Shown in pieces: positions 1-54,572 of a DNA stretch of 54,572 nt. This stretch comes from Dimargaris cristalligena (taxonomy: Eukaryota), in NCBI GenBank assembly GCA_003614675.1, contig ML002262.1, positions 1 to 54,572 on the forward strand, read 5' to 3'. A model generated the notes under the pieces. The model was given only the letters and a program-made list of their open reading frames with translations, did no database searches and was not told where the DNA came from. How positions within the stretch are numbered: position 1 is the stretch's first letter; the number at the start of each line of letters is the position of its first letter. Made by a program: the position numbers and the translations under genes.

Positions 1-1375
1 TTTAATATTTTAATTTTTAAAAATTCAAATAAAAATTTTTAAAAATTTTTACACCGCCATATTGAAAAATTGATTTAAAGATTTTGCTCTTATGTTAAGT
101 AATATTACTTATATTCTCTTAAACTGTTTATAATTCTTCTTATCTTGTTTATCTTTGATAAATGGTTTAATCCTCCCCACCACCATTATGTAATTATGCT
201 GTTTTACGGTTGCCCCGTGAATATAATGATAAAATATAATTATATCACCCCTCGTTGTTATTACATTTATCACAATCACTAGGAACCGTTCCACCATAAA
301 AAAAAATATAAAAAATAACCGAAAAAAACTTAATGATGTAACAATGAACAATCAGTAGGAAATCAATAGATAGTCCAATAAACATGGTTTAAAAATTGTG
401 AACCCCCCACATTTATGTGTGTTTATATAAAATATCTAAACCTGGCCTGTACCTTAACTCCACCGTGCCGTACCTATAAATGGGTTAAAATTTAAAACAA
501 TAAAATGAACATGGATATGAAATAAATTGTATTTGTTCCAATATGTTTCGCCCCATCATTAACAAAAAATATATGAAAAATGGAAAATCAAAATTACTAA
601 AGTTACTTGATTAAATATTTATAAAAATGTTAAAGATTATGAAGGAATTATTTCATATTAAATTTATATATATAAGCGTTTTTAATCACATATTTATAAA
701 ATTAATTTATTTCCCCCAATACTTCGTATTGCTTTGTTGATTGGCTTTCAATTACCAGTATTTTGTACTTTAAACACATAAATGTGTTACTAAGATAATT
801 ATATCAAAATATGTTTATTCATTATTAACCGCCCTACGGGGGGTTCCCACATTTATGTGTGTTTATCGATACTTCGTATCATATCCCCGCCAAATCTACG
901 ATTGGCAACATATTTATGTAACATTTATACCATTATATTCAAAATCATAGATTGGCTAACATTCTGGAAATTAATAAAGTAAAAAGGAAAGGGGCAAAAC
1001 CTGGGTTTTTCTATTTATGAACATTAGGTAAAATATAAATAAAAACATAAAGGAGGAATATCTAATAAATCAACTAAATAGGACAAATTGAAAAATAATA
1101 CAATCATATATAAACCAATATGTACAAAGTACTGGCTTGTTTCCTACAGATATTACCATTATTAATGAAAATGTACTAAGAAATATAAACACACATAAAT
1201 GTGGGAACCAACAGTTAAGCAAATCTATGATTTGGGTAATTGCGTATCTGATATGGGAAAATTCTTTTTGTATTATTACCATTTTCAATAATATAATGGG
1301 ACCAAAATTAATATTTTATAATTGGTGGGTATGAATATATAATTAACTAAAAAACAATATTGAAAATATTGCTCC

Positions 1376-1390
1376 CCAATCTATGATTGG
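1376..1390. repeat. Representative dispersed mini-hairpin element CCAATC-TAT-GATTGG (dozens of copies and variants genome-wide)
   Basis: Copies or variants near 6381, 11263, 13728, 14539, 19617, 32702, 33226, 34838, 34942, 36102, 39581, 42680, 48875. Confidence 0.9.
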
Positions 1391-1859
1391 TTCTAGATAT
1401 GAAATAAAAACACCAATATTATAAATATTGTGGGGTACGAAGTACTGCAGATTGATAATTTAAATATATAGGATCATAATATACTCTACCCCCATATTTT
1501 TAATATGGTTTATCAGTTTATTATTATCATAAATTCATTCAGTACATATACAAAGTATGGGACCAAAATTTACTTCTTTTAAAAGGATATTATAGCAAAT
1601 CTAAGATTGGGATTGCCAGATACATTATAACATCTACGATTGGGAATATGGAATAAAAGTATTTTAATTATATTTACTGCACAATCTACGATTGGTTAAA
1701 GATAAATAGAACAATTCCATCAGTATAGCTTTTGCATGGGTCCTATGGTGGGAGATTGCCTGCAGACCAGTTCATTCATACTAAAGTACTTAAAATAAAA
1801 AATAAAAATTTACTTACAATATTAGAATGAATATGCATTCAATCCACATTTTAACTTAC

Positions 1860-1942
1860 GCCTACTTGGAGAAATTGGTAAACTCAGACGCTTTAAAAGC
1901 GCCGCATCTTTGATGTTGAGGGTTCAACTCCCTCAGTAGGTA
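1860..1942 (+). tRNA. trnL: tRNA-Leu(UAA)
   Basis: Cloverleaf, anticodon arm gacgc-tttaaaa-gcgcc, long variable arm, GTTCA T-loop. Confidence 0.92.
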
Positions 1943-1946
1943 AATA

Positions 1947-2027
1947 GAGAAGTATGGAGTTTGGATCTCCAACCTTTCTGTAAAAAAGGCGGTAATACCA
2001 TAAAGGGTTCGAATCCCTTACTTCTCA
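1947..2027 (+). tRNA. trnY: tRNA-Tyr(GUA)
   Basis: Acceptor gagaagt/acttctc; ccttt-ctgtaaa-aaagg; long variable arm. Confidence 0.92.
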
Positions 2028-2075
2028 AGTAACACAATGAATTTATATACGCTTTGATCTGATAATATCTTAAAA

Positions 2076-2148
2076 GAGGGAATAGCTTAATAGGTAGAGC
2101 AAACCGCTCATAACGGTTAAAGTAGAAGTTCAATTCTTCTTTTCCTTA
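2076..2148 (+). tRNA. trnM: tRNA-CAU (Met, or lysidine-type Ile)
   Basis: aaccg-ctcataa-cggtt anticodon arm. Confidence 0.88.
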
Positions 2149-2149
2149 A

Positions 2150-2220
2150 GGTGAATAGGTGTTAAGGCTGCACATAAGGCTCATGATCTTAAAGAGATAG
2201 TTCAATTCTATCATTCACCC
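2150..2220 (+). tRNA. trnM: tRNA-Met(CAU), possibly initiator
   Basis: ggtgaat/attcacc; taagg-ctcatga-tctta. Confidence 0.85.
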
Positions 2221-2286
2221 AATTATATAACCACAATATTGAGTTACTTAGTAACTTTAATGCTATTTTTATACTAAGCTAAATCA

Positions 2287-2358
2287 GACTCCATGGTCAA
2301 ATGGTTAAGACACAAGATTTTCAATCTTGTAATGCCCGTTCAATTCGGGTTGGAGTTA
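2287..2358 (+). tRNA. trnE: tRNA-Glu(UUC)
   Basis: caaga-ttttcaa-tcttg. Confidence 0.93.
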
Positions 2359-2371
2359 TTAAAGTGCATTC

Positions 2372-2442
2372 AGGATTATAACTTAATGGTAAAGTAGCCA
2401 ATTGATAATTGGTTGATAGTGGTTCAATTCTACTTAATCCTA
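2372..2442 (+). tRNA. trnI: tRNA-Ile(GAU)
   Basis: gccaa-ttgataa-ttggt. Confidence 0.93.
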
Positions 2443-2526
2443 AATTCGGTTTTGACCGTTTACGAGACGGCAACTAGAGACTCGACAAATCTCGGCTTTC
2501 TTTAAGCTACAAAACCTGTTTCGTTT

Positions 2527-2597
2527 GGCTGGATAACATAATGGTAATGAGCAAGATTGCAAATCTTGATATAAGAGTTCAATTCTCTTTCTAGCCT
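2527..2597 (+). tRNA. trnC: tRNA-Cys(GCA)
   Basis: caaga-ttgcaaa-tcttg. Confidence 0.93.
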
Positions 2598-2625
2598 CAA
2601 CCAAGTCATAAACGACTTGCCCCAT

Positions 2626-2698
2626 GGGAATATAACTCAATTGGTAGAGTAACAAACTTTTAATTTGTATTATTTGGGTTCAAGTCCCAATATTCTCA
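2626..2698 (+). tRNA. trnK: tRNA-Lys(UUU)
   Basis: acaaa-cttttaa-tttgt. Confidence 0.93.
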
Positions 2699-2701
2699 AT
2701 G

Positions 2702-2774
2702 GCTTCGATAGCTCAACTTGGCAGAGCATAGGGCTGAAAACTCTAGGGAAGATGTTCAAGTCATCTTCGAAGCA
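2702..2774 (+). tRNA. trnF: tRNA-Phe(GAA)
   Basis: taggg-ctgaaaa-ctcta. Confidence 0.93.
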
Positions 2775-2836
2775 AACAATCTATGATTGGTTGGAAAGGT
2801 ATCGAAGCAAACAATCTATGATTGGTTGGAAAGGTA
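2767..2836. repeat. Perfect 35-bp tandem duplication (tcgaagcaaacaatctatgattggttggaaaggta x2) between converging trnF and trnM
   Basis: Units at 2767-2801 and 2802-2836; mirrored in the right TIR. Confidence 0.9.
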
Positions 2837-2893
2837 ATCGAAACCTTATTAACCGTTTATGATACGGCTGTTTTACCTTTAAACTATCCAACT
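2823..2893 (-). tRNA. trnM: Third tRNA-CAU (Met/Ile)
   Basis: gccgt-atcataa-acggt; A1:C72 mismatch. Confidence 0.85.
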
Positions 2894-2921
2894 TACTTGC
2901 CCCAATTATTAATGATCTTAC

Positions 2922-2994
2922 TTTGGATGGAGAGATTCGAACTCCCAAATGATGAAACCAAGATCCATTGCCTTACCTATTTGGCTACATCCAA
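2922..2994 (-). tRNA. trnQ: tRNA-Gln(UUG)
   Basis: ttggatg/catccaa; atgga-tcttggt-ttcat (C33). Confidence 0.88.
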
Positions 2995-3069
2995 ATTACG
3001 GATCAACATCTACAGTGCTGCTCTTTTATCATCTTATATTATTGATTTATTTTTATTTCTTATTTTAAT

Positions 3070-3140
3070 GCGAGTATAGGTTAATGGTAGACTCTCTTCC
3101 TTCCAAGTAGATTATGCTGGTTCAAATCCAGCTACTCGTA
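3070..3140 (+). tRNA. trnG: tRNA-Gly(UCC)
   Basis: gcgagta/tactcgt; loop cttccaa. Confidence 0.9.
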
Positions 3141-3161
3141 AACGGTTAAAACCGGATCTAT

Positions 3162-3233
3162 GGGGATATAGTATAATTGGTAGTACACACGTTTTGCATA
3201 CCTGTAGCAAGAGTTCAAATCTCTTTATCTCCA
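3162..3233 (+). tRNA. trnA: tRNA-Ala(UGC)
   Basis: ggggata/tatctcc with G3:U70; loop tttgcat. Confidence 0.92.
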
Positions 3234-3283
3234 AGGCGCCCGCCAAATCCTAGCGCAATTAATTACCCCACTTACGGTGTGGT

Positions 3284-3367
3284 GGATAGATGACTGAATT
3301 GGTTTAAGGTATCTTACTTGAAATAAGAAGGTTTATTACCATCTGGGTTCAAATCCCAGTCTATCCG
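3284..3367 (+). tRNA. trnS: tRNA-Ser(UGA)
   Basis: tctta-cttgaaa-taaga; long variable arm. Confidence 0.92.
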
Positions 3368-3391
3368 TTCGTTCGATGGCCACTGTTTTGT

Positions 3392-3465
3392 CGGATTGTA
3401 GCGTAATAGGATAACGAGTCCGGTCTGGGCCCGGAAGATTGCTAGTTCAACTCTAGCCAATCCGA
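3392..3465 (+). tRNA. trnP: tRNA-Pro(UGG)
   Basis: tccgg-tctgggc-ccgga (C33). Confidence 0.9.
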
Positions 3466-3507
3466 ATCTGAAAAATAAATCAAACCAAATTCCATTGAAC
3501 ATTTATA

Positions 3508-3617
3508 ATGTTGCTGAATACATTTTTAACCTATTTAATATTTACTCCCTTATTTATTATATTATTATTAAGTATTAATTTATTTTTACCTGTTAATAAA
3601 CCGGATTTTGAAAAATT
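3508..3617 (+). pseudogene. nad3: Truncated 5' copy of nad3 at the inner edge of the left TIR
   Basis: [36 protein letters not shown], identical to the start of nad3 exon 1 up to the TIR boundary. Confidence 0.85.
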
Positions 3618-3641
3618 TAAAAGAAAAAATAAATATAAAAT

Positions 3642-3713
3642 GTTATAATAGCTTAATGGTAAAGCCAATCACTGTTAATGATTATTATCTGGGTTCGAAT
3701 CCTTGTTATAACG
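3642..3713 (+). tRNA. trnN: tRNA-Asn(GUU)
   Basis: aatca-ctgttaa-tgatt. Confidence 0.92.
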
Positions 3714-3731
3714 ACAATCTATAATTGGCAA

Positions 3732-3802
3732 GGGAAAATAATTTAATGGTAAAATCTTGATCTTCAAAATCAATTATATAGGTTCAAATCCTATTTTTCC
3801 TG
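3732..3802 (+). tRNA. trnW: tRNA-Trp(UCA), reads UGA
   Basis: ttgat-cttcaaa-atcaa; agrees with TGA at conserved Trp sites of cox1 and nad4. Confidence 0.92.
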
Positions 3803-3913
3803 TATAATATAAATAATAATTAACTTTATTATAAATATTTATACCATTAATCTTAGATTAATTAATTTTTTTCACTTTCCAAAAGATGAATTTACTCAGT
3901 TTATATATTTATT

Positions 3914-4177
3914 ATGATATTAGGATTAACATTATATTTTATAGGTATATATGGTATAATATTAAATAATAAAAATTATTTACAAATATTAATCTGTATA
4001 GAAATTTTATTATTGGCTGTAAATATAATTTTATTAACTTTTTCTTTAAATAATGATGATATAATTGGTCAATTATTTGCTCTTTATATAATTTGTATAG
4101 CTGGTGCAGAAACAGCAATAGGATTAGCTATATTAGTAACTTATTATAGATTAAGAAATTCTATTCTTATTAGTTAA
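3914..4177 (+). CDS. nad4L: NADH dehydrogenase subunit 4L
   Basis: 87 aa; IEILLLAVN...DDIIGQLFALYII.IAGAETAIGLAILV.YYRLR. Confidence 0.97.
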   Translation: MILGLTLYFIGIYGIILNNKNYLQILICIEILLLAVNIILLTFSLNNDDIIGQLFALYIICIAGAETAIGLAILVTYYRLRNSILIS

Positions 4178-4198
4178 TATTAAAGGATTTATGTATTT

Positions 4199-4240
4199 AT
4201 TATGGAAATGTATATATAATTAAAGATATAAAAATTTATG
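4199..4240 (+). promoter_or_regulatory. Conserved leader/promoter-like motif, copy 1 (attatggaaatgtatatataattaaagatat...ATG)
   Basis: 39/42 identical to 50268-50309 (minus strand); 22/24 identical to 33241-33264. Each copy precedes an orphan ORF. Confidence 0.6.
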
Positions 4241-5090
4241 AATTTAACTAGCATATTAAGTCTATTAGAAGTATTACTTTCATTTTTATTTTGATTTTTC
4301 TTTACCAGCAATATAATATATTGGTGTGGATTATCTTATTCAAAATATTTAAAAATTCTACAAATAATTTGTATTGTGAGTTTTATAATATTATTATTAA
4401 TGCATTTATATATTGGTTCGAAAAATTTTGAATATGTTTTATTATTAAATAACGATAGTAAAAATACTATAAATAATACTATAAATATTTTAAATATTTG
4501 TATGGATAAAAATTCTGCTAAATTAATTGGTAAAAGGCATTATTAAAAATAATGGGGTTCAAATATAGGATTAGGTGCAACTGTAGCAGGGGTTGCTGCT
4601 GCTGTAGCTAAAAGTGTTAGCAAATCTTCTTTACCTCCAATTCAAAAAGCAAGTATAGTAATTGGTGGAAGTTTAATTGGTGGAGCTATACATATGGGAG
4701 CATCTATTATTAATAAAGCCCCTCAATGTCAAACATCAGGGGAAAGTTATAATTTAAATATAATAAAAAATCTATCAGATAAAAATATTAAGAAATTTAT
4801 TGAAACTGATACCCCATTCAATGAATGGCAGATTTAATATTTGTTATTGAAACTATAAATGGAGTATGTTTTATGTTAACAATAATTTTAATTATTCAAC
4901 CTATCCAATATTTTATTGGGATAAAAATATTGAATTAAATTTAAGTAAATATTTTGGTAGTAGTATTAATAATAAAATAAATTTATATTTAAATAAAAAA
5001 GTCATTATATGACTGAGTCATTAAACGTACTTTGAATATATTTATTAATTTTAATTTTATTTATCGGATTAATGTCCTCGAATTATTTCC
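4238..5090 (+). pseudogene. Frameshifted orphan membrane protein with glycine-zipper region
   Basis: MNLTSILSLLEVLLSFLFW... then GSNIGLGATVAGVAAAVAKSVSKSSLPPIQKASIVIGGSLIGGAIHMGASIINK and hydrophobic C-terminal segments. Broken by frameshifts and a hairpin insert near 4900. Confidence 0.65.
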
Positions 5091-6720
5091 CATTAATTAC
5101 ATTAATGTTCTGGATTGATTTATTAACGATCATATAAATTCTTAATTTTATCTTCTTATTATATACAGCTTTTTTGGCTGAAATGTTATTAATTGATTTA
5201 TTATACTTTTATTACAAGAATATATTTTTAATCAAGCTCTATTTATTATTTATATTATGAGCTATATTTTTCTTTTATTATTTTATCAGTTCTTCGTATT
5301 TTACTATTCTTTCTGGATTAAACCATAATTTATTTACCAAAATCAATAAATCTTCTTTGTATTAATATTTAACCTCATTATATTAATTTCATTAATGTTA
5401 ATATTGGGTCTCTGAGGAATCTATTCATAATTGTTATTATTTTGGTTTCCTACCCAATATTTTCAATATTGTTTATTAAATTTTTACAGTAAAAATCCCA
5501 ATTATTTCATAATTGTTAGCTAACAATTAAGGAGTTTCTAGTATATAGTGATATTTTTTTTTTTACAGCTATTATTTACTTAACTGTAGCCAAATCTTTA
5601 ATTTATTTACCATATAATTCATATTTATCATAAAATCTAATGCTATATAAATCCTTGTATCAATAACATTGTTATTCCTACATAGTCAATATCTTCTTTA
5701 AAAAATAATAAAACTAAAAATGAAAAACTTATGAATATGTGATTAAAAAGACTTATTTTATTACTTACCGAATCCCCAATATATGATTGTGGGTAGAATT
5801 ATTTATAATATCAATAATATATATATATTTGTATATATGATATTAAATTTTACAATCATATAAAAATTTTTAATTGTGGGTTCGAATCCTTGTTCATAAA
5901 ATTTCAGTTAAACCTTAAAAATATTGATATATTATAGAATTAAATATAAATGAAGAAGAATATAAAATTATATCATAAAATTATTTTTATTATAATGCAG
6001 AGTAAAAATTTAAGATAATTTGATCTATGGTGGTCATAATATAACTGAATATAAATAATAAAAGGAAATTGTTTTTAATATTGTTTAATTCGATTATGTA
6101 TAGAAATAATTGTTATTATCTGTAATATTTTTATATTCATCAGTTTACTAAGATATAACAGGATCACAAATCGTAGATTTGGCTTAGTTATAATTATTAC
6201 ACTTTTAGTTATTATAACTTTTTTTAAAATAATTTATAGATTTGGTATCTTATTACTCTAGATATTCCTACTAAAAACACATTTATGTATTGTACCATAT
6301 ATGTTCTTTACCAATTTTAATATAAATTTTACCCAAATTTGATTAATTAAATTATTTGCAATTTAAAATTAAAGTATTACCCAATCTATGATTGGTTAAT
6401 CAATTTAGGAATTAGAATTTGAACCAATAATAAACGAATATGTTCGAATTGTTATTGACCCAAATCTTAGATTTGTTGTGATAAAGGAATCATTATGTAA
6501 TTTAATTATAATAAACCTAATAATTCTAACAAATAAAAAAGATTATTGCACATCTTCGATGGGTGATTGTAGCTAAATACATTTATTAATATTTTTAAAG
6601 TTATGATTTAATTAAATAATATTTTTTATCCTGATACATAATATTGGTGTTTAATGATAAATTCATAAAAAAATCTATTGTTTTATTGTAAAATTTAATA
6701 ATGTGCATTATTGTTTAATT

Positions 6721-6975
6721 ATAGGAACTGTATATTGTTTATTATCAATTTTAAAGGCCTTTTTCTCGAATTTAAATGCAAATCCTAAAATTAATACTAA
6801 AATAATACTAGCAAAATTATTAAACCATATAGATCGTTAGCATAAGTACTAACTACATAAGGATATACTAATAATATTTCTAAGTCAAATAATAAAAATA
6901 ACAACGTAAATATAAAGAAAGATATATTAAATTGAGTTCTATTTTTGCTTAGGAATAAATGAAATCAGGGTCATT
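6721..6975 (-). pseudogene. nad3: Degenerate second nad3, Pezizomycotina-like
   Basis: FHLFLSKNRTQFNISFFIFTLLFLLFDLEILLVYPYVVSTYANDLYGL...LGFAFKFEKKAFKIDNKQ. Confidence 0.85.
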
Positions 6976-7009
6976 ATAAATTAAACATTATTATAATCAA
7001 TCCTAGATT

Positions 7010-8010
7010 AGGTAATACTTTATCATTCTTGGTGGGTAAAAAATAAATAATAGAGTAATTAATGTTAAAATTTAAATTATAATTTTTATTGGATAATAAT
7101 ATATGGTTTATAAAAGAATATTTGTTTTACAATATTTAGATAATAAATTGCATTGTGTAGCAGTTATAGCTACAATAGATATGAATATATATCCATTGTT
7201 AATAATTAATGATAAAATCATTTGTTTTGCAAAGAATGCTATTAATAATAACTGGTATACTTACTAATGCACAGAATTTATACTAAAATAACCTTTAAGT
7301 TGATCCTATATAATGGGGTGAGTTATTTTTATCTTTGAATATATTTATTAATTTTAACTTTATCCAGAGACGAAGTATTTTGTATAACCTATAGCTATTA
7401 AAATAATAAAATATTGAGTATTGTATTAGATAGAACCAATTTATAAGCAAATAGTCTTTTTATTATAAATTGGTTCCCACAATTAGAGATAAGAAAGAAT
7501 ATGATTATAAATCATGGTTCAATTATAAATTATATTTGTATTACCCATTTATATTATAAATGTTTTTATCTCGATATAGATATTTTACTATAATAGCTAC
7601 AAATGTTATTGTTACTGTAGATATAGCATCATAAATATCAGAATTTCAAAAATAAAAAGGAACTACACCCATATCTTATATGTAAATCTTATAGAGCATC
7701 TAAGATGTTTTGATATCTTGTATTATCTTCATTAATATACCTAATAAAAATAATATAATCCTGCTGATATTGATGATTCATAATTTCCAGATATTAAAAA
7801 TATCTTATTAAAATTTTTAAATATTGTTACAATATATAATAAAAATATTAATAATATTCCTCTCAGTATCATAGATACTTTATAATTGAATAATTTATTT
7901 GTTTTATTATTATTATTATATGAATAGAAATTTATTAAATTTAATATTATAAATATTTGGATTAAGTTATCTATATGTAATAATCCATTAAAAATAGATA
8001 TAGCAATAAT
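7010..8010 (-). pseudogene. nad2: Degenerate nad2, Pezizomycotina-like
   Basis: Collinear fragments GLLHI, RNYESSISAGL, GVVPFYFWNSDIYDAISTVTITF, QFIIKRLFAY, DQLKGYFSIN, FFAKQMILS...NNGYIFISIVAI, with many frameshifts. Confidence 0.85.
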
Positions 8011-11000
8011 ACATTAATCCTATACTTATAATTCTAGAAGATCTTGCTAACTACCTTAAGATCAAAAAAATAAATTATATCATTGAAGAATATATTCCCA
8101 ATATTACTGTAAATATTGCCAATGATAATAATAAAATAAACTCTCCTCCAAATGCTATTCAGTTATTTTATTACTTTAGTATAGGCTGCTTAGAATACAA
8201 TAGATAAATTAAACATACGAAGTATGGGCTAATCTTTCATATGTTTCGTAAAATGATATAAATTCTCCTAATAAATAAAATATTAATGATGTATCACAAT
8301 TACCAAGATACAATATAAAGAAGAATAATGTATAAATCATGGTTCAATTACAAAATTTAAGTTTATTTATTTTGGTGGGAAGAAATAAATAGATATTTCA
8401 TTGAATTTGGTAAAAATAATAATTAATTATATATAATATCCCTTTAGGTTTTTTATAACTTTAGATAATAAATAATGGTAAATCTATAGAATGTAATTTT
8501 ATTTTTAATCTAGCCCCTGATATTTATAAATTTCCTATTTAAATATACCAACAATAAATACATCGCTAAACCTAGTTATAAATTATAATTTATTTATATA
8601 AAAAGATTATAGTTATTACCAGATATAAAAAATATCTTTTCTTACTTATTTATAAAACAGTGATTATGAGATTTAAATTTTAATTTTATCAAAATGTTTA
8701 TCAAAAGATCAAAGTATAGTGAACATTCCTATTGCCTACTCTATTAGTTAAAAATGCGGAGTTATTCTAGTATATCAAAAATTAACTAATAAATAAGAAC
8801 ATATACTTACTCCTTCTCATTTTACAAATATTAATAGATTTTATGTATCATGATTAAAAAAAAGTAGTATAATAATTATAAATTCTTTATTATGACTGTG
8901 TTATAATTCAATTAATTTGTTGGGATAAAATTTACATTTAACAGAGATAATGACTGTATTACAGTTCAGAATAAATTGTTTTATTTTATTACTTTTTGAT
9001 AGGAAATCTATGTGTAATTATTTAAATTTAAAAACATTATGAATTGGAAAAATTAATGTGTTACAATTTAGAATAAATTATTTTTTTTAATTTATGTTAA
9101 ATGGAGTCAATGTCCAATTATTATTATTTTATTAGATTAAATTTTATCACCCCCCCCGTAGGGCGGTTATAAGGATATTTATATTTAGCATAAACATTAA
9201 TGTAATTAATGGTAGTTTTATTTATTTTAATGGAAAATATGTTAATATTAAGTTAAACATGGGAAGATAATTTATCTGTAATAATAATTTATTTTTATAT
9301 ACTTAACAGAAATAATAACTGTGTAAATGGCATACGCGTGTTTACAGATTTTATTTCTGTGTAACAATTCATAAAAATTATTTTTATTTTTTATGGGTAT
9401 TTATCTGTTATTATTTATTTTAATATCATTTAGGTATTTAATTAAAGAGGTATTATTACTGTGTAACAATTTATAATTTATTAAATTTTTATTAATACAG
9501 GTATTATAAATATTTGGGGAATTACTATAATAAATTTTTTGTAACTATTTATACAAGGAATTTATTTTCTTGTAAATGCCTCATCAAATGAAACTTTTTT
9601 ATAATTTCTATATTGGTTAAATTTTTATATTTTTTTACTTTTTCGACTATTATCTTATAAAAATATATTATTTTTACTTTAGAAACAAATCTATGATTTG
9701 GGTTATTATACTCTCTTTATTATACTACTTTAATATTTTATCTATACATAGGAAGTTAATATAAAAATTAAATATTAATCATGTTTATACCATGTTTAAA
9801 TAAAAAGACTATTTTATTAACTCTGTTCCATTATGACATTTATGAAATAAATGGCTCCCATATAAACATTAATGCCATTTATTACATTAATGTTTTACAT
9901 ATCTGCACAAATAAATATATTACTCTACATATTTTATGAACTTATATATGCATTAAAAATCAACCGAGATACTTGTTTATCTATGATTAACGGGTTAAAT
10001 GGTTTGGTTATATAAAACATTTAACCACTTACATATTAATGATTATTGAATTTAAAATTTCTTATCATATGAATTATAATTTTTTTTTATTTTATAAATT
10101 ATTTCCATCTTATATAGTTATTTTTAGATAAAATTTTTATTTACAATAAAATTGTGGAAAAGTAAGTATCTTTGATATTGGTTATTAAGCATATTTTTAA
10201 TTTAAATAAAGTTATTATATTTTTTGATACGTATTAATCAAATTTAAATTATTAATATATATAGAAGATGCAGTAATATTTTATTCATCTCGTATATACC
10301 AATATAAAAATATTTTTATATTTCAGTAAAAATGATGTAACTAATATCGTATTTCCTAGCATAATGTTAAAAGTAATGGTTCCATATCAAAATAAAATAA
10401 GAATATATACATGATTATATTTGTATCAACATTTATGAAATAAATGGCTAGATATAAATAATAAAAAAGTAATGCGTATACCTAATTAATAAAAAAAATT
10501 ATTCATTTAATGGAAAAAATAAAGTAAAAGACCTATAAAAGAATAAATATGTAATTGGTATAAAGATATAATTTGTAGTTTATAAGAATATTGTAAAAAC
10601 AAAATTAAGTAAATTTGAATTAAATAATCTATAGATAAATTGTTATATTATTAAAAAAACGTGTAAACCAAATATATTTGAATGTACAAAAACTATTTTA
10701 TAAAAGGTATAACTAAACTTAGAAAATATATAAAAAATATTAATCTAAGACCTGTTATTAAATAAAACTTAGAACCATTTACGTAAATATAAAATTATAA
10801 GAGAAACAGTTAATTCACAATTATGAAATAATTGGGTAGTACACTGGAAATAAAAATAGTAAAAAGTCTAAAAAGGTTTTACGTGGTTGGTTGTATAAAG
10901 ACAGACTAGATTGTACAAAGTACTGGAACTAATAAAATAAGTGTAAAAATTTTAGTAGAACAAGATATAATAAATGATATATAACTTAAAATATAAAATC

Positions 11001-14784: not shown

Positions 14785-14820
14785 TATAGAGTAAATAAAA
14801 TTAAGGATCACATATAGGAT

Positions 14821-30903
<16,083 letters not shown>

Positions 30904-40802: not shown

Positions 40803-40878
40803 AGAGAGTTGTATGATGGGAGACTATCACGTACGGTGGCAAGTAGGAACCGTAAGGAACTTAGACTTAGCCAACTAT
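40803..40878 (+). mobile_element. Orphan group II intron 3' end (degenerate domain V/VI)
   Basis: agagagttgtatgatgggagactatcacgtacggtggc...ccaactat. Confidence 0.75.
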
Positions 40879-45520: not shown

Positions 45521-47429
45521 ATTAAATAATAGAATTTACTACCTAGATTTTTATTTTTATTATCTCAATATATTATAAATAAAATATTATTTGTATCTAT
45601 TATTGATTATTTAAATTTAATAAAAATAATTTGATAGGGAACTATGGTTAAGGCTGCACGAATAGAAGTATAAATAGAATTTATATTTAATTATAAATCA
45701 ATAACTTTAATTTTTATAGTCAGGTAAGTTAGCTAGTACTTTGTATTTTAATTATAGAAAATAAAGTAAGAGTGATCTTATTTGTATTAAGGTTTTTAGC
45801 TGCATCTGTTAAAGAAACATATTAATGTGAAATATTTATTTCTATATTAGTAACTTTAACTTTTATTACTTTATTTTTAAGTAAATTGGACAAATTCTTT
45901 CTTACTTTAATTAAAGCCATAATATAACCTAAAGATGAATAAGCTTTTCTTAAAACATTATATTCTTGCTTTAAAGAATCCATATAATACTGTAATTTTT
46001 TAGTTATAACTTTAGTATCACAATATTCTAGGATCACAAATATACGATTTGGTTTATCCATATTTTTTAAGAGCTTTATTTATAACCATATTTTTACGTG
46101 AGGGGTGTGAGATTGATTAAAATAACTTATAAATCTAATTTTTATTCGTATCTAAATGAGTTCAATGATATATACCCGCCTTACCTTCATTATTATAAAT
46201 AACTACCGATATAAATGCTAAATAGTAAAAATCAATATATTTATAATTAACATATTTTTTAAATAACAAAATTACACTCGAAATGTGGTGAAATAAAAAA
46301 TAATTTAAAAAGCTAACCCTCTAGGAGTACAATATTTTTAATATTGGATATAGTTTATGATATTTTTATATATGTACAAATATGTTTATGAAGAAAAACA
46401 TATATTTCAGATATAACAAATATAATATTTATAATATTGGTAATAATTCAGATTGCGTAATATACTCCCCCATCAGAGATGATTATGCCAAATTTACAAT
46501 TTGGGATCTGTATTGAATTTAGAAATATTAAAGAAATATCCGACGTTTAAACACACATAAATGTGGGAATTATTAAAAATATCATGTAGTAACTGTAAAC
46601 ATCGATATATGTTGTTATCATAATGTGACCCCCATCCATTTTATATCTATCTTATGGGCTTATAAAATAGTCAGCTGGATTTGTACCACAGTTAATTTCA
46701 TAAATTTAAACAAAACCCAAATTGTAAATTTGGCTCATTTGGACTAAAACATTAAATAGTAATAGCTTATTATTACTTTTATTAATTAGATTTAGTATGA
46801 AAAACTAGATATAAAATATCTTTTTAAAAGCTATTATTCATCTTATAAATTTAAATGCCAAAATTTAATATTTTTGATCAATAATAAATTATCAAATTTT
46901 TATACATTTGCATAGTATAATTATCGTTATTTAATTGACTGGTTACATATATATAAATGTGGTCTTAAACGGATAATACAGGACAATAAGCATAATCTTT
47001 TATATATGATAATTTTTAGCCAGTAAATACGTCATAATAAAAGATTTAAATTAAATAAGAGGCATAATTCTGAAATTGTGGTTACAAATATAAAAAATTT
47101 TTATACGAGAGTGATTTTATAAATTAAATTGAGACATAATGGACTACAAAAGGTATTAAATATAGTAAGCTTTATATAAACCATTAGTATTGAGTTACTT
47201 AGTAACTTGAACGTAAGCCATTCATTGAATGGGGTAAAAGATCAAAATATTATTTTAAGTTTATTATAGAATAAATATCTTTAAAAAGTTTATTACTTCT
47301 AATATATTTATCCCAATAAAATATTGGATAGGTTAATAAATTATACAGCTTTTTTCATAGAATAGAATTTAACTGCTTTTTTATTATTACCGATATTAAA
47401 AATATTGTATTTGTTATTTTTAATTCCTA

Positions 47430-48010
47430 TTTTATTTTTAGTTTCCTTAGTATATATATGATTTAAAATTTAACTTTTTTAATATATTTATATCCTAAAC
47501 TTAACCTAGCAATTAAACAATTTGGATCTAGATAAAATTGTTCTATCTCAAGCAGTTTAGCTTTTGGGCAATACTCTAAATTCTTCAAGGGAGTATTGCA
47601 AAATATCTTTGACTTTGTTTCTATTAAATTCAGGTTTATTATAATAACTTCCTAATCTTTTTACTTAATGTTTTATCATTCAGATTATTAATTAGATACC
47701 TAATTAATCCTTATTATCTCTTAATATCTCCTCTTTTAATTTATCTGCATTATCATAACTTTTAACTAGAGATACTAGTCTTTAATCTGACCCATGACTT
47801 TAAATAAAATTATTGCTATTATTGTTATTTATTGTGACGTATTGTAAATATTTATTGTAATGTCGACAGCTTAGTGTTTGTTTCATTCCAAACATAGGTC
47901 ATGGTAACTTAAAAATAACCTAACTCACATTTCATAGTCGCAACTAGATACGGCCAAAGACTCATCTTAGTAAGCTGTTTAATATCGTATCTTGCAGTCT
48001 CTTAACCCTA
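47430..48010 (-). pseudogene. Possible remnant of a further group II intron 5' part / RT N-terminus
   Basis: Locally higher GC; PKAKLLEIEQ resembles the RT0 region. Confidence 0.35.
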
Positions 48011-48377
48011 TTATACCTGAATTCTTTATTATTACATTATATAACTTATATTTTACTTGTTAATGTTGTATACCGGATATTTTATTATCCATAAGTTTTG
48101 CTTAACCATTTTTCCTAATAATTTTAATTTCTTTTTATTTCTTATTTAATGAATTTACAAAGTAACTTGCAGTAATAATAATAAATAAACAAAATACTAT
48201 AATTATAATCGTGTATTTAAAATATATATAATATGATTTATTTATTTTTAGGTACTACTAATAATTATAAAGTTACTTTAAAATATGATATAATTTATAT
48301 ATATAATTTAAAATTTTATCCATATCCTTAATTTTACCAAGATAGATAATCCAGTTTATTTATGAACTTAAAATAAA

Positions 48378-48790
48378 ACCATATGCTGGAAACTTTTAAA
48401 GCTTTGGATACAATTAATAATGTGTTCTAACATTAAATAATGTAAAAAAATCTTAAAGATGTAACAATTAATAATCAGTAGGAGTCCAATTAAGACAAAT
48501 TTAATTTGTCATAAATATGTGGTGTAATCTTTAAACTATATTGCAGATTAAACACATAAATGTGTTATGGGTATATTATTAAGTGATATATATATAGCTA
48601 GAATAAGTTCTACATATTTATGGACAGATAACCATAAAACATAAAGAATATTTTTATTATGTATATAGTTTTTTTTTACGAACTAATAAAATATATAGTA
48701 CTATATCTTTTACAACTATGCAATTTCCTTGTTTTAATGTATTTAAAGAAACATTATTTAAAATATAGTTATTCTGGCAACTATATTTTA
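48378..48790 (+). pseudogene. Group I intron core remnant with decayed LAGLIDADG_2-type ORF
   Basis: atgctggaaac...aatcagtagg; GILLSD; FTTMQFPCFNVF. Confidence 0.6.
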
Positions 48791-49748
48791 AATAAAATAC
48801 TAACCATTTGAGAAAATTTCGTAATACACACCACACTAGTTACAACAATGTCAATTTGTTGTTTAATATTAACCCCAATCTACGATTGGTTTTTCAATAT
48901 AAGATATCTATAGATAATTAATACATAAAATAATAATTTACTTACATGTATGCCAATTATATGCTTTATAATCAGTATCAAAGATACTTACTGTACAAAT
49001 ATGCTTAATAATTTATTTATATATTTGGTATGTTATAAATAATTTTATTAAAGCCCCGTCCACCGCTTTAAATTGTGATGAACAACCATTAATTTCCATC
49101 TCCATAAATAATAAAACAAATTTTTTAAATAATATAAATATGAATTAATTAAATCAATTTATTTCCTCTCTCTCTTTAATAAAATTATTAAATTTAAACA
49201 TATTATCCATTAATTTATTTTATTCTTCTTATAATCTATCTTTAGTTTTATTCCAACAAAAATATTGTAGTATAGTATCTTCTTATTAATTTTTTCATGG
49301 TCGATATCTTAGATATCTTTAAACATTTTGAATGATGAATAGTACAATATTTTAATATTGGATAAAATGCAACAAGGATATAATAAATTTTTATAGATCA
49401 AAGATTAAAAATATGATTACATAAATTTAACAAATTTATTGTACACAGTAATTATTAAAATTTATTTTGTTTTTAATTTATGATAAAATTTTACTGTTTT
49501 CTTGATCAGAAATATTATTTATTATATTTTCTTTTTGTCTTAATAATTTCATTTTTATTAAATCTAATTCTAAATTTAATTCTTTTATTACCTCTTTTAC
49601 TAATTGACTGTCTATTGAATTACACTCATTATTTAATTCAGCTAGGTCCGATCTTATATCTTTAAGTTTTTAACTTTAAAATCTAATAGATCTTTTTTTA
49701 TTTAATTTTATACCTTACTTTAAATAATATACTGTCTAAATAATTTTT

Positions 49749-50270
49749 CTATTTATTTCTTACTTTTAATTTATTATTCCAAATCATAGATATTATATAT
49801 TTTATTTTACAAAATATCATTATTAATGTATATATTGAGAATATTAATACTATAGGTATGACAATAAATAATGAATAATTTTTATTTATTTCTATTGATG
49901 ATATTAACAATATAAAATGTATTCCTCCTAATACTCTAAATATTCTTATATACACATTATTGTTAAAAGCCTCTAATTTTGGTGGTAAAATTGGTACACT
50001 TAAACCCAATTTAAATCCATATATAAATCTTTTAATTTTTGATGTTTTTCAATAAGGAGGAATTACAAATTTAAATTCTGAATCTTTATTTTCAAAATTT
50101 TCAACTTTACTTTTTAACTCCCCTATTTTATCTAAATTTTTATTTTGTATTAATATACTGGGTAAAAATAAATAATTTATATCTATAGTATCTAAGTTTA
50201 TTACAAAAATTGTGAATAAAAAAAAAATTTCATTATCAGAATGAAGCTCCATTTTAGTTATATTTTTCAT
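49749..50270 (-). CDS. Orphan membrane protein (173 aa, possibly C-terminally truncated)
   Basis: Two track ORFs join through TGA=Trp; GFKLGLSVPILPPKLEAFNNNVYIRIFRVLGG followed by hydrophobic helices. Confidence 0.65.
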
Positions 50271-50309
50271 AACATTTAATATCTTTAATTATATATACAT
50301 TTCCATAAT
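50268..50309 (-). promoter_or_regulatory. Conserved leader/promoter-like motif, copy 3
   Basis: 39/42 identical to 4199-4240; ends at the ATG of ORF 49749-50270. Confidence 0.6.
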
Positions 50310-50423
50310 CAATTAAAATTATAACATTTTACTTATCACACCAATATAAATACATTAATATAGGATTTGGGTAAAGATATTTTAAACACATAAATGTGTT
50401 TTTTACCGCAATAATAAAACCAG

Positions 50424-50495
50424 GGTGAAAAACGGGAATTGAACCCGTATAGACAATGCCACAAATTGTTATTTTACCATTAAATTATATTCACC
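50424..50495 (-). tRNA. trnH: tRNA-His(GUG)
   Basis: acaat-ttgtggc-attgt; encoded G-1. Confidence 0.92.
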
Positions 50496-50502
50496 TTATA
50501 AA

Positions 50503-50584
50503 TACGGATAGTGAGATTTGAACTCACAAGGAATTAACCAACGCAATCTAAATACGTATTGTTTACCAATTTCATCATATCCGT
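50503..50584 (-). tRNA. trnL: tRNA-Leu(UAG)
   Basis: acgta-tttagat-tgcgt; long variable arm. Confidence 0.92.
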
Positions 50585-50606
50585 AAACAAATTAAAATAT
50601 AATAAA

Positions 50607-51065
50607 TTATTTATATTTTAAAGCTCCTTTAGTATATTCATAAAAAAAACCGATTGTTAATAAAATAATAAATATTATCATTATTACTCAACCATATATT
50701 GATAATTCATATAATAATAAAGCAAAAGGAAATAATAATATAATTTCTAGATCAAAGATTAAAAATAAAATTGCTACTAAAAAAAATTGTATTTTAAATT
50801 TTTCTCTTGCATCACCTAATGGATTAATACCGCCTTTATATATATGGACTTTGTTATTATGTTATTAATTTTATATTAAGTCTCTGAAAGTTATTTTGCA
50901 TATAAAAATTTATGCATATAATAAAATAATAGAGCACTTTAACTCATATGGGGATAATTTTTCAAAATCCGGTTTATTAACAGGTAAAAATAAATTAATA
51001 CTTAATAATAATATAATAAATAAGGGAGTAAATATTAAATAGGTTAAAAATGTATTCAGCAACAT
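50607..51065 (-). CDS. nad3: NADH dehydrogenase subunit 3; exons 51065-50942 and 50833-50607 (116 aa)
   Basis: Splicing restores [38 protein letters not shown]...[14 protein letters not shown]. Confidence 0.93.
50834..50941 (-). mobile_element. nad3 mini group I intron (108 nt)
   Basis: IGS gctc vs exon gagt; P3 attttat/ataaaat; P4 tgcata/tatgca; P7 gactt/aagtc; terminal G. Confidence 0.85.
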
Positions 51066-51107
51066 TATAAATGTTCAATGGAATTTGGTTTGATTTATTT
51101 TTCAGAT

Positions 51108-51181
51108 TCGGATTGGCTAGAGTTGAACTAGCAATCTTCCGGGCCCAGACCGGACTCGTTATCCTATTACGCTACAATCCG
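51108..51181 (-). tRNA. trnP: tRNA-Pro(UGG), TIR copy
   Basis: Mirror of 3392-3465. Confidence 0.9.
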
Positions 51182-51205
51182 ACAAAACAGTGGCCATCGA
51201 ACGAA

Positions 51206-51289
51206 CGGATAGACTGGGATTTGAACCCAGATGGTAATAAACCTTCTTATTTCAAGTAAGATACCTTAAACCAATTCAGTCATCTATCC
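51206..51289 (-). tRNA. trnS: tRNA-Ser(UGA), TIR copy
   Basis: Mirror of 3284-3367. Confidence 0.92.
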
Positions 51290-51339
51290 ACCACACCGTA
51301 AGTGGGGTAATTAATTGCGCTAGGATTTGGCGGGCGCCT

Positions 51340-51411
51340 TGGAGATAAAGAGATTTGAACTCTTGCTACAGGTATGCAAAACGTGTGTACTACCAATTAT
51401 ACTATATCCCC
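51340..51411 (-). tRNA. trnA: tRNA-Ala(UGC), TIR copy
   Basis: Mirror of 3162-3233. Confidence 0.92.
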
Positions 51412-51432
51412 ATAGATCCGGTTTTAACCGTT

Positions 51433-51503
51433 TACGAGTAGCTGGATTTGAACCAGCATAATCTACTTGGAAGGAAGAGAGTCTACCATTAACCTATACT
51501 CGC
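51433..51503 (-). tRNA. trnG: tRNA-Gly(UCC), TIR copy
   Basis: Mirror of 3070-3140. Confidence 0.9.
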
Positions 51504-51578
51504 ATTAAAATAAGAAATAAAAATAAATCAATAATATAAGATGATAAAAGAGCAGCACTGTAGATGTTGATCCGTAAT

Positions 51579-51651
51579 TTGGATGTAGCCAAATAGGTAA
51601 GGCAATGGATCTTGGTTTCATCATTTGGGAGTTCGAATCTCTCCATCCAAA
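51579..51651 (+). tRNA. trnQ: tRNA-Gln(UUG), TIR copy
   Basis: Mirror of 2922-2994. Confidence 0.88.
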
Positions 51652-51679
51652 GTAAGATCATTAATAATTGGGGCAAGTA

Positions 51680-51750
51680 AGTTGGATAGTTTAAAGGTAA
51701 AACAGCCGTATCATAAACGGTTAATAAGGTTTCGATTACCTTTCCAACCA
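51680..51750 (+). tRNA. trnM: tRNA-CAU (Met/Ile), TIR copy
   Basis: Mirror of 2823-2893. Confidence 0.85.
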
Positions 51751-51798
51751 ATCATAGATTGTTTGCTTCGATACCTTTCCAACCAATCATAGATTGTT

Positions 51799-51871
51799 TG
51801 CTTCGAAGATGACTTGAACATCTTCCCTAGAGTTTTCAGCCCTATGCTCTGCCAAGTTGAGCTATCGAAGC
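51799..51871 (-). tRNA. trnF: tRNA-Phe(GAA), TIR copy
   Basis: Mirror of 2702-2774. Confidence 0.93.
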
Positions 51872-51874
51872 CAT

Positions 51875-51947
51875 TGAGAATATTGGGACTTGAACCCAAA
51901 TAATACAAATTAAAAGTTTGTTACTCTACCAATTGAGTTATATTCCC
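51875..51947 (-). tRNA. trnK: tRNA-Lys(UUU), TIR copy
   Basis: Mirror of 2626-2698. Confidence 0.93.
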
Positions 51948-51975
51948 ATGGGGCAAGTCGTTTATGACTTGGTTG

Positions 51976-52046
51976 AGGCTAGAAAGAGAATTGAACTCTT
52001 ATATCAAGATTTGCAATCTTGCTCATTACCATTATGTTATCCAGCC
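51976..52046 (-). tRNA. trnC: tRNA-Cys(GCA), TIR copy
   Basis: Mirror of 2527-2597. Confidence 0.93.
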
Positions 52047-52130
52047 AAACGAAACAGGTTTTGTAGCTTAAAGAAAGCCGAGATTTGTCGAGTCTCTAGT
52101 TGCCGTCTCGTAAACGGTCAAAACCGAATT

Positions 52131-52201
52131 TAGGATTAAGTAGAATTGAACCACTATCAACCAATTATCAATTGGCTACTTTACCATTAAGTTATAATCC
52201 T
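52131..52201 (-). tRNA. trnI: tRNA-Ile(GAU), TIR copy
   Basis: Mirror of 2372-2442. Confidence 0.93.
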
Positions 52202-52214
52202 GAATGCACTTTAA

Positions 52215-52286
52215 TAACTCCAACCCGAATTGAACGGGCATTACAAGATTGAAAATCTTGTGTCTTAACCATTTGACCATGGAGTC
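52215..52286 (-). tRNA. trnE: tRNA-Glu(UUC), TIR copy
   Basis: Mirror of 2287-2358. Confidence 0.93.
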
Positions 52287-52352
52287 TGATTTAGCTTAGT
52301 ATAAAAATAGCATTAAAGTTACTAAGTAACTCAATATTGTGGTTATATAATT

Positions 52353-52423
52353 GGGTGAATGATAGAATTGAACTATCTCTTTAAGATCATGAGCCTTATG
52401 TGCAGCCTTAACACCTATTCACC
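52353..52423 (-). tRNA. trnM: tRNA-Met(CAU), TIR copy
   Basis: Mirror of 2150-2220. Confidence 0.85.
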
Positions 52424-52424
52424 T

Positions 52425-52497
52425 TAAGGAAAAGAAGAATTGAACTTCTACTTTAACCGTTATGAGCGGTTTGCTCTACCTATTAAGCTATTCCCTC
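52425..52497 (-). tRNA. trnM: tRNA-CAU (Met/Ile), TIR copy
   Basis: Mirror of 2076-2148. Confidence 0.88.
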
Positions 52498-52545
52498 TTT
52501 TAAGATATTATCAGATCAAAGCGTATATAAATTCATTGTGTTACT

Positions 52546-52626
52546 TGAGAAGTAAGGGATTCGAACCCTTTATGGTATTACCGCCTTTTTTACAGAAAGG
52601 TTGGAGATCCAAACTCCATACTTCTC
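52546..52626 (-). tRNA. trnY: tRNA-Tyr(GUA), TIR copy
   Basis: Mirror of 1947-2027. Confidence 0.92.
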
Positions 52627-52630
52627 TATT

Positions 52631-52713
52631 TACCTACTGAGGGAGTTGAACCCTCAACATCAAAGATGCGGCGCTTTTAAAGCGTCTGAGTTTACCAATT
52701 TCTCCAAGTAGGC
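52631..52713 (-). tRNA. trnL: tRNA-Leu(UAA), TIR copy
   Basis: Mirror of 1860-1942. Confidence 0.92.
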
Positions 52714-54572
52714 GTAAGTTAAAATGTGGATTGAATGCATATTCATTCTAATATTGTAAGTAAATTTTTATTTTTTATTTTAAGTACTTTAGTATGAATG
52801 AACTGGTCTGCAGGCAATCTCCCACCATAGGACCCATGCAAAAGCTATACTGATGGAATTGTTCTATTTATCTTTAACCAATCGTAGATTGTGCAGTAAA
52901 TATAATTAAAATACTTTTATTCCATATTCCCAATCGTAGATGTTATAATGTATCTGGCAATCCCAATCTTAGATTTGCTATAATATCCTTTTAAAAGAAG
53001 TAAATTTTGGTCCCATACTTTGTATATGTACTGAATGAATTTATGATAATAATAAACTGATAAACCATATTAAAAATATGGGGGTAGAGTATATTATGAT
53101 CCTATATATTTAAATTATCAATCTGCAGTACTTCGTACCCCACAATATTTATAATATTGGTGTTTTTATTTCATATCTAGAACCAATCATAGATTGGGGA
53201 GCAATATTTTCAATATTGTTTTTTAGTTAATTATATATTCATACCCACCAATTATAAAATATTAATTTTGGTCCCATTATATTATTGAAAATGGTAATAA
53301 TACAAAAAGAATTTTCCCATATCAGATACGCAATTACCCAAATCATAGATTTGCTTAACTGTTGGTTCCCACATTTATGTGTGTTTATATTTCTTAGTAC
53401 ATTTTCATTAATAATGGTAATATCTGTAGGAAACAAGCCAGTACTTTGTACATATTGGTTTATATATGATTGTATTATTTTTCAATTTGTCCTATTTAGT
53501 TGATTTATTAGATATTCCTCCTTTATGTTTTTATTTATATTTTACCTAATGTTCATAAATAGAAAAACCCAGGTTTTGCCCCTTTCCTTTTTACTTTATT
53601 AATTTCCAGAATGTTAGCCAATCTATGATTTTGAATATAATGGTATAAATGTTACATAAATATGTTGCCAATCGTAGATTTGGCGGGGATATGATACGAA
53701 GTATCGATAAACACACATAAATGTGGGAACCCCCCGTAGGGCGGTTAATAATGAATAAACATATTTTGATATAATTATCTTAGTAACACATTTATGTGTT
53801 TAAAGTACAAACTACTGGTAATTGAAAGCCAATCAACAAAGCAATACGAAGTATTGGGGGAAATAAATTAATTTTATAAATATGTGATTAAAAACGCTTA
53901 TATATATAAATTTAATATGAAATAATTCCTTCATAATCTTTAACATTTTTATAAATATTTAATCAAGTAACTTTAGTAATTTTGATTTTCCATTTTTCAT
54001 ATATTTTTTGTTAATGATGGGGCGAAACATATTGGAACAAATACAATTTATTTCATATCCATGTTCATTTTATTGTTTTAAATTTTAACCCATTTATAGG
54101 TACGGCACGGTGGAGTTAAGGTACAGGCCAGGTTTAGATATTTTATATAAACACACATAAATGTGGGGGGTTCACAATTTTTAAACCATGTTTATTGGAC
54201 TATCTATTGATTTCCTACTGATTGTTCATTGTTACATCATTAAGTTTTTTTCGGTTATTTTTTATATTTTTTTTTATGGTGGAACGGTTCCTAGTGATTG
54301 TGATAAATGTAATAACAACGAGGGGTGATATAATTATATTTTATCATTATATTCACGGGGCAACCGTAAAACAGCATAATTACATAATGGTGGTGGGGAG
54401 GATTAAACCATTTATCAAAGATAAACAAGATAAGAAGAATTATAAACAGTTTAAGAGAATATAAGTAATATTACTTAACATAAGAGCAAAATCTTTAAAT
54501 CAATTTTTCAATATGGCGGTGTAAAAATTTTTAAAAATTTTTATTTGAATTTTTAAAAATTAAAATATTGGG

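Follow-up and report, generated by a model that had tools for sequence, protein, structure and literature searches.

Inverted ends carrying 15 tRNA genes on a mitochondrial contig of Dimargaris cristalligena, and their proposed reading as the ends of one linear chromosome of a divided genome

We analyzed a 54,572-nucleotide contig of the fungus Dimargaris cristalligena (GenBank assembly GCA_003614675.1, contig ML002262.1; the whole stretch is hereafter called the window), in which a small set of mitochondrial genes lies between two long terminal inverted repeats. Genes on the left side of the window are read rightwards and those on the right side leftwards, that is, inwards from both ends. With modest confidence, we consider that the window is most likely one complete linear chromosome of a mitochondrial DNA (mtDNA) that is split over at least two molecules.

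Inverted repeats and tRNA genes at the contig ends

A search of the whole window recovered a single pair of inverted repeats, with arms of 3614 nt each at 4-3617 and 50956-54569, and no second long inverted repeat in the window. The arms share 99.972% identity over these 3614 nt by blastn. Base-by-base comparison of the window with its own reverse complement located the mismatches exclusively at window bases 1-3 (TTT versus CCC) and at base 761 (T versus G). The repeat extends to three bases or fewer from each sequence end, and arm identity breaks off sharply at 3617/3618. Counted to the sequence ends, the left terminal inverted repeat occupies 1-3617, with 4-3617 as the exact repeat, and the right one 50956-54572, which mirrors the left arm and differs from it at the outermost three bases and at the partner site of base 761. 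The outer, gene-free part of the left arm (1-1859) is non-coding with a G+C content of 26%, and amounts to about 1.86 kb per arm.

Inward of this non-coding part, the left arm carries a cluster of 15 transfer RNA (tRNA) genes (1860-3466, plus strand), identified with ARAGORN and Rfam and by acceptor-stem pairing. They are arranged in the order L(uaa), Y, M, M, E, I(gau), C, K and F, followed by M and Q on the minus strand and then by G, A, S(uga) and P. The right arm holds the same genes at 51107-52713 on the minus strand (ARAGORN, Rfam). Acceptor stems pair at 7/7 positions in 14 of the 15 left-cluster tRNAs and at 6/7 in M3. The original prediction had described near-perfect terminal inverted repeats of 3.6 kb that reach both ends and hold 15 tRNA genes; arms of 3614 nt with one internal mismatch, together with 15 ARAGORN genes in each, bear this out. 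A tandem duplication with a 35-nt unit (2.1 copies, 97% matches) was also observed within the cluster at 2767-2842, with its mirror at 51731-51806, where it overlaps the 3' ends of trnF and the minus-strand trnM and carries the dispersed palindrome motif described below.

Overall, ARAGORN detected 35 tRNA genes in the window, 15 per arm plus five that are unique, and Rfam at its gathering score supported 31 of them. The other four, trnY and trnP in two copies each, were called by ARAGORN alone, and their acceptor stems still pair 7/7. The unique genes, all found by both programs, are trnN(guu) (3641-3715), trnW(uca) (3732-3802, labelled as selenocysteine by ARAGORN under the bacterial code) and trnS(gcu) (14702-14784) on the plus strand, and trnH(gug) (50423-50494) and trnL(uag) (50502-50585) on the minus strand. 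Among the 20 distinct tRNAs, 18 acceptor stems pair 7/7 and two pair 6/7. The window thereby encodes 16 of the 20 amino-acid tRNA specificities. No trnR, trnD, trnT or trnV was found in it by ARAGORN, and of 1195 codons sampled from the genes of the window, 148 specify these four amino acids. Tryptophan is written as TGA at all 19 of its positions in the sampled core genes, never as TGG; code 4 (TGA = Trp) was applied throughout the protein-gene analysis.

The inner border of the repeat falls within nad3. The left arm closes on a cut-off copy of this gene (3508-3617, the first ~37 codons; tblastn), which ends at 3617 and runs directly into trnN. At the opposite end, nad3 occupies 50607-51065 on the minus strand. 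Its start codon (51065) falls in the right arm together with the first ~37 codons, and its conserved C-terminal part, matched by Pfam, is at 50861-50610, followed by the stop codon at 50609-50607. An in-frame insert of ~105 nt (~35 codons; ~50942-50838) that contains four stops follows the 'SPYE' of the N-terminal part and precedes the conserved C-terminal part. It begins 13 nt past the repeat border, and its limits were judged by eye against a NAD3 consensus. Possible readings of the interrupted nad3 are a pseudogene, a split gene and a gene from which the extra stretch is removed or bypassed. We rejected a structured mobile hairpin as the nature of the insert, which folded no better than shuffled sequence (z 0.53).

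Several short matches were noted in connection with the repeat. A long, decayed inward extension of the inverted repeat was rejected: the inverted matches inside the arms (4195-4242/50266-50313, 4892-4938/47293-47339 and 10161-10194/48959-48992) are just 34-49 nt long, and some of them are dispersed hairpin elements. The first of these pairs is a 48-nt element whose two inverted copies are 92% identical, each ending at the ATG of an uncharacterised open reading frame (ORF), at 4232-4543 on the plus strand and 49752-50288 on the minus strand. The element may act as a leader or promoter common to the two ORFs, or be what is left of a once longer repeat. In addition, an internal near-copy of the repeat's terminal ~40 bases (including ...TTTTTAAAAATTTTTACACC) is found at 36650-36689, and may be a relic end or a chance occurrence in AT-rich DNA.

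Core genes and genes not found

The window contains 190 stop-to-stop ORFs of at least 55 amino acids, of which 171 were compared with Pfam, the remaining 19 being right-arm mirrors of left-arm ORFs. The scan also took in 352 of the 637 ORFs of 30-54 amino acids, namely every one of the 315 in 4175-14700 and 32362-50610 and of the 37 in 1-1860. Matches were obtained for nad4L, cox1, nad4, nad3, two group II intron reverse transcriptase/maturase ORFs and four LAGLIDADG ORFs. Intact nad4L lies at 3866-4177 on the plus strand (Pfam Oxidored_q2, E 3e-21), and intact nad4, with 480 codons, at 30922-32364 on the same strand (Pfam and protein-collection matches).

The largest gene is cox1 (14833-30903, plus strand; Pfam, tblastn and Rfam), which spans 16 kb, or 29% of the window, and consists of 11 exons and 10 introns. 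Ten exons were recovered by tblastn with four full-length COX1 references and cover Allomyces COX1 residues 9-358 and 379-534, while exon 9 (~25587-25650) was set by eye, the ~20 absent residues fitting the first codons of the ORF at 25587. Two of the introns are of group II, and four carry LAGLIDADG ORFs. The two reverse transcriptase/maturase ORFs (14818-17442 and 25587-27956; Pfam) are open and share 31% mutual identity, group II domain V structures were found by Rfam at 17473-17549 and 27980-28071, and the four LAGLIDADG ORFs (17474-18817, 22576-23736, 23918-24841 and 27934-28923; Pfam) are open as well. The original prediction had counted four core genes, cox1, nad3, nad4 and nad4L; three of them, nad4L, cox1 and nad4, are indeed intact, and the fourth, nad3, is interrupted by its four in-frame stops.

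No ribosomal RNA (rRNA) gene was matched by Rfam, either at the gathering score in the whole window or at E<=1 in 3600-51000, and three universal rRNA core motifs had no match with 2-3 mismatches allowed. Among the scanned ORFs there was no Pfam match for cob, cox2, cox3, atp6, atp8, atp9, nad1, nad6 or rps3, and no intact nad2 or nad5. Rfam, Pfam and ARAGORN agree with the earlier claim that rns, rnl, cob, cox2/3, the atp genes, intact nad1/2/5/6 and the four tRNA genes are missing from the window. Because it has no rRNA genes, because 10 core protein genes that would be expected are not there in intact form and because trnR, trnD, trnT and trnV, which would serve the 148 codons mentioned above, are missing, further mtDNA of this fungus must, almost certainly, exist; this second claim of the prediction is well supported by the same three gaps. 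An invertron, or an integrated linear mitochondrial plasmid, was also considered and rejected, as neither a family-B DNA polymerase nor a phage-type RNA polymerase was present among the scanned ORFs.

The alternative that the window is the whole mitochondrial genome, with the missing genes nuclear and the rRNAs fragmented or diverged within 27 kb of gene-poor DNA, has the large AT-rich regions without assignment in its favour. We consider it scarcely credible, given that no rRNA match appeared even at E<=1 and that the three core motifs are absent even with mismatches allowed. Furthermore, decayed copies of nad3 and of a nad5-like gene beside intact nad4 and nad4L make a loss of complex I unlikely, and we know of no fungus with a mitochondrial genome devoid of mitochondrially encoded rRNAs.

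A separate chromosome or part of a larger molecule

Several observations argue for the favoured reading of the window as a linear chromosome, which is also how the original prediction took it, as one likely part of a multipartite mtDNA with sister chromosomes that possibly share its ends. The repeat reaches both ends and stops sharply inside, and its arms, being unlike at base 761, were called separately. The inner border of the repeat cuts nad3, leaving the truncated copy at the opposite end; gene duplication or fragmentation at such borders is frequent in linear mitochondrial chromosomes, though not obligatory. Both the gene cut at the border and the shortened copy at the other end match what has been described for expanding telomeres of linear mtDNAs (PMC3673629). 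The gene set of the window is not self-sufficient, and fungal precedents for a split into linear molecules exist, as described below. We infer linear ends and separate sister molecules as follows. The 3.6-kb inverted ends would be telomeres that grew inwards through recombination or gene conversion, a growth that would have duplicated the first ~37 codons of nad3 along with the 15 tRNA genes. The chromosome would provide cox1, nad4, nad4L and 16 of the 20 tRNA specificities, and sister DNA would have to supply whatever else mitochondrial translation and respiration require, including rns and rnl, the four remaining tRNA specificities, cob, cox2/3, the atp genes and the nad genes missing here.

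The same picture would be given by an assembler that extended a single-copy region into both copies of the repeat and stopped at the far branch point. In that case, the window would be a single-copy region plus both flanking repeat copies within one larger mtDNA, circular-mapping or linear, the assembly having halted where the repeat branches to another single-copy region with the rRNA and remaining genes, and isomers would flip by recombination. This is a serious possibility that we nevertheless regard as rather unlikely. The contig ends coincide with the repeat ends, as a stop at a repeat branch would give, and the outermost three bases differ as the first bases of two flanks would; there is neither a telomere-type array nor a polymerase gene, and large inverted repeats do occur in the circular-mapping yeast mtDNAs described in PMC3105423. 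However, the arms also differ at internal base 761, and were therefore called separately and not copied from one collapsed repeat. A method that separates the arms would normally be expected to span the 3.6 kb and go on outwards into flanking DNA, and three divergent bases would be an odd stopping place for an assembler.

Several observations weigh against a separate linear chromosome. No terminal tandem array is present at the window ends, and the unlike outermost bases, which could be end noise, could equally be the start of diverging flanks. DNA or RNA polymerases of the linear-plasmid type gave no Pfam match among the scanned ORFs. Searches for related molecules were likewise negative, although none of them reached other contigs of the source assembly: a 40-base stretch of the repeat had no match in a collection of genome contigs, nad4 had no relatives in that collection, the protein collection contained none for an ORF taken from the repeat, and an exact look-up of ten window ORFs found all ten absent. 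Finally, ~27 kb of the window (49%), at 4178-14701, 32362-33256 and 34133-49751, has a G+C content of ~20% and no recognisable function, and with nad3 interrupted as well, the window may not be an essential chromosome.

Both states could also coexist, with a larger master form alongside linear sub-genomic molecules whose covalently closed hairpin ends lie at the palindrome centre, the window being one resolved form. For Candida labiduridarum and Candida frijolesensis, such a mechanism has been put forward on the basis of pulsed-field gels, Southern blots and nuclease mapping (PMC3105423), and the window has the long inverted repeat that it needs at both ends, with no array or polymerase gene. 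We hold it to be improbable here; a single contig cannot show a hairpin or a palindrome junction, and nothing separates this arrangement from the plain linear or the repeat-flanked readings.

A further alternative is that the window arose as a by-product of recombination, a rearranged sub-genomic mtDNA, dispensable or defective, that exists beside a complete master with its own cox1, nad4 and nad4L. The 49% of the window without recognisable function, the several pseudogene fragments and the interrupted nad3 are consistent with this. Nevertheless, the 11 exons of cox1 are in register with reference COX1 over residues 9-534, apart from the gap of ~20 residues filled by eye, nad4 and nad4L are open with strong Pfam matches, and the intron ORFs are open too. 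All this speaks for selection on this copy, and we find the defective by-product very unlikely.

All that was recognised in this gene-poor DNA are relics. A decayed nad3-like fragment lies at 6800-6973 on the minus strand (Pfam), with 70.5% nucleotide identity to the other nad3 copy. On the same strand, decayed fragments of the proton-antiporter type were found at 8078-8343 and 8751-8900 (PF00361, E 6e-4, below the cut-off). The first of these is matched by 54 nad4 references (best E 0.003), and from the piece WEGVSICSYLLVNFWYTR, read by eye, the fragments at 8078-8900 appear to be nad5-like. A possible nad2-like fragment was also noted at 7544-7675 (minus strand), from a by-eye reading of GVVPFYFWNSDIYDA, so that the decayed block at 6800-8900 would have the minus-strand order nad5, nad2, nad3.

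In the 15.6-kb stretch at 34136-49751 (~20% G+C), which has no recognisable gene, Pfam recognized decayed LAGLIDADG pieces at 39446-39601 and 45278-45406. Rfam gave a sub-threshold group II domain V at 40804-40875 on the plus strand (35.9 bits versus a cut-off of 40), which is 75% identical to the one at 17470-17566 and has no recognisable reverse transcriptase nearby. At 48028-48147 lies a relic, in inverted orientation, of part of cox1 exon 1 and of the sequence upstream of trnS(gcu) (87-88% identity). It is internally deleted, ~228 nt including trnS being gone between its two matching pieces. Decayed paralogues of the window's reverse transcriptase, LAGLIDADG and uncharacterised ORFs were sought with tblastn (E<=0.01), and none was found beyond the known intron ORFs and the 5' copy of nad3. 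The decayed nad3, nad5-like and cox1 5' copies indicate that segments were duplicated in the past and that one copy was then lost, as would be expected if genes were partitioned among molecules.

We tentatively put forward an extension of the favoured reading: a multipartite linear genome in which the 3.6-kb module with its 15 tRNA genes is the common telomere of every chromosome. The chromosomes would have arisen via resolution at large inverted repeats, after which duplicated genes decayed reciprocally. What remains of that decay would be the relics of nad3, the nad5-like gene and cox1, and tRNA gene dosage would rise with chromosome number. If true, this would be the first such case among fungi outside chytrids and ascomycete yeasts, within the literature that we searched, although the support for this is weak.

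An uncharacterised ORF and dispersed elements were noted as well. The ORF, of 292 codons at 33257-34135 (plus strand), belongs to a small conserved family: ten relatives were retrieved at E<=0.001 among 1.8 billion representatives, five of them below 1e-17 and none with a name, and an invariant ETTPR motif and hydrophobic segments are common to the family. The ORF matched no Pfam family and no PDB entry. The 15-nt palindrome CCAATC-NWN-GATTGG occurs 16 times in the window versus 0.01 expected, for example at 1376, 6381, 11262, 13728, 34838, 34942 and 48875, with sites in both arms, in introns and in gene-free DNA, and resembles a dispersed family of small hairpin elements. Another palindrome, ACACATAAATGTGT, is also recurrent.

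Host lineage and known linear mitochondrial genomes

The identity of nad4 to any match in the protein collection is 52-53% at most, and its best named matches are from Mucorales, Conidiobolus/Neoconidiobolus, Endogone and Blastocladiella. A quick maximum-likelihood tree was built from 44 sequences: the window's nad4, all 11 named matches and, from the best 40 of the 120 listed, the 32 unnamed ones of 440-520 amino acids; no other listed match was included. In this tree, the window falls within the fungi, above Blastocladiella, on a very long branch (1.59), and weakly (SH-like approximate likelihood ratio test, SH-aLRT, 85) beside the Conidiobolus and Neoconidiobolus sequences, a placement that may be due to long-branch attraction. 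Judging from nad4, we take the window to be genuine mtDNA of a fast-evolving zygomycete-grade fungus, one that reads TGA as Trp, and claim no finer rank from this gene.

Chytrid-type mtDNA is marked by acceptor-stem mismatches that need 5' tRNA editing, whereas 18 of the 20 distinct tRNAs of the window pair perfectly. The chytrid-type combination of trnL(cua) and TAG = Leu is also absent, with no trnL(cua) among the 20 distinct tRNA genes and no in-frame TAG in nad4 or the sampled exons, and nad4 did not group with any named chytrid among the matches listed. A Batrachochytrium origin was rejected in view of the tRNA content, the genetic code and the lack of dpoB.

Among fungi, Batrachochytrium dendrobatidis is reported to have an mtDNA in three linear segments that each carry terminal inverted repeats (PMC6131824, PMC11277600, PMC11797018), and a dpoB homologue is present in that genome (PMC6131824). 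As described in these citing papers, it resembles the window as a fungal mtDNA of linear molecules with inverted-repeat ends, the split into chromosomes being what we propose for the window. Chytrid mtDNAs as characterized in PMC6131824 have reduced tRNA sets, trnL(cua), TAG = Leu and a dpoB relic; the window differs in having 20 distinct tRNA genes, whose acceptor stems are well paired, and in lacking both trnL(cua) and dpoB. Within the same group, Synchytrium endobioticum has a linear mtDNA of 72.9 kb with terminal inverted repeats of 3529 bp, almost equal in length to those of the window, but this molecule carries the full gene set, with rns and rnl, as well as a dpoB relic, and has only five tRNAs (PMC6131824). 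The window, in contrast, lacks the full gene set, the dpoB relic and the reduction to five tRNAs.

The two Candida species introduced above provide another parallel, with three linear mtDNA chromosomes in the description of Valach et al. (2011, PMC3105423). They share with the window large inverted repeats at the ends and, on the proposed reading, no need for a plasmid-type polymerase, and linear fragmentation is again what we propose for the window. Unlike the window, they are ascomycete yeasts with compact genomes and experimentally mapped ends (PMC3105423); the window belongs to a zygomycete-grade fungus, half of it is gene-poor DNA, and its ends are known from sequence alone.

Precedents for the contents of the ends come from telomere expansion by gene conversion in linear mtDNAs, as presented by Smith and Keeling (2013, PMC3673629). 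Their examples include cox1 in Hydra, four tRNAs plus a piece of nad11 at the ends in Ochromonas, and trnM plus a piece of atp6 at those of Candida viswanathii, and the loci carried in expanded telomeres range up to >30 (PMC3673629). As in these cases, the window's ends contain complete tRNA genes as well as the 5' part of a protein gene that crosses the border, with the truncated copy opposite; compared with the examples named here, 15 tRNA genes per end are a larger load.

Chytrids, yeasts, cnidarians and algae already provide examples of multipartite linear mtDNA with inverted ends, and the window is at best another case, in a poorly sampled fungal lineage. Should it instead lie between two inverted repeats within a larger genome, it would be an ordinary fragment of an assembly, and a repeat-flanked contig is not in itself evidence of linearity. 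If the ends are physical, however, an independent fungal lineage would join the few known fragmented linear mitochondrial genomes, with a clear example of telomere expansion that has taken in most of the tRNA set. It would then help to test whether multipartite organelle genomes originate by repeat-mediated resolution or by plasmid integration, and how gene dosage and segregation are managed where no partition system exists.

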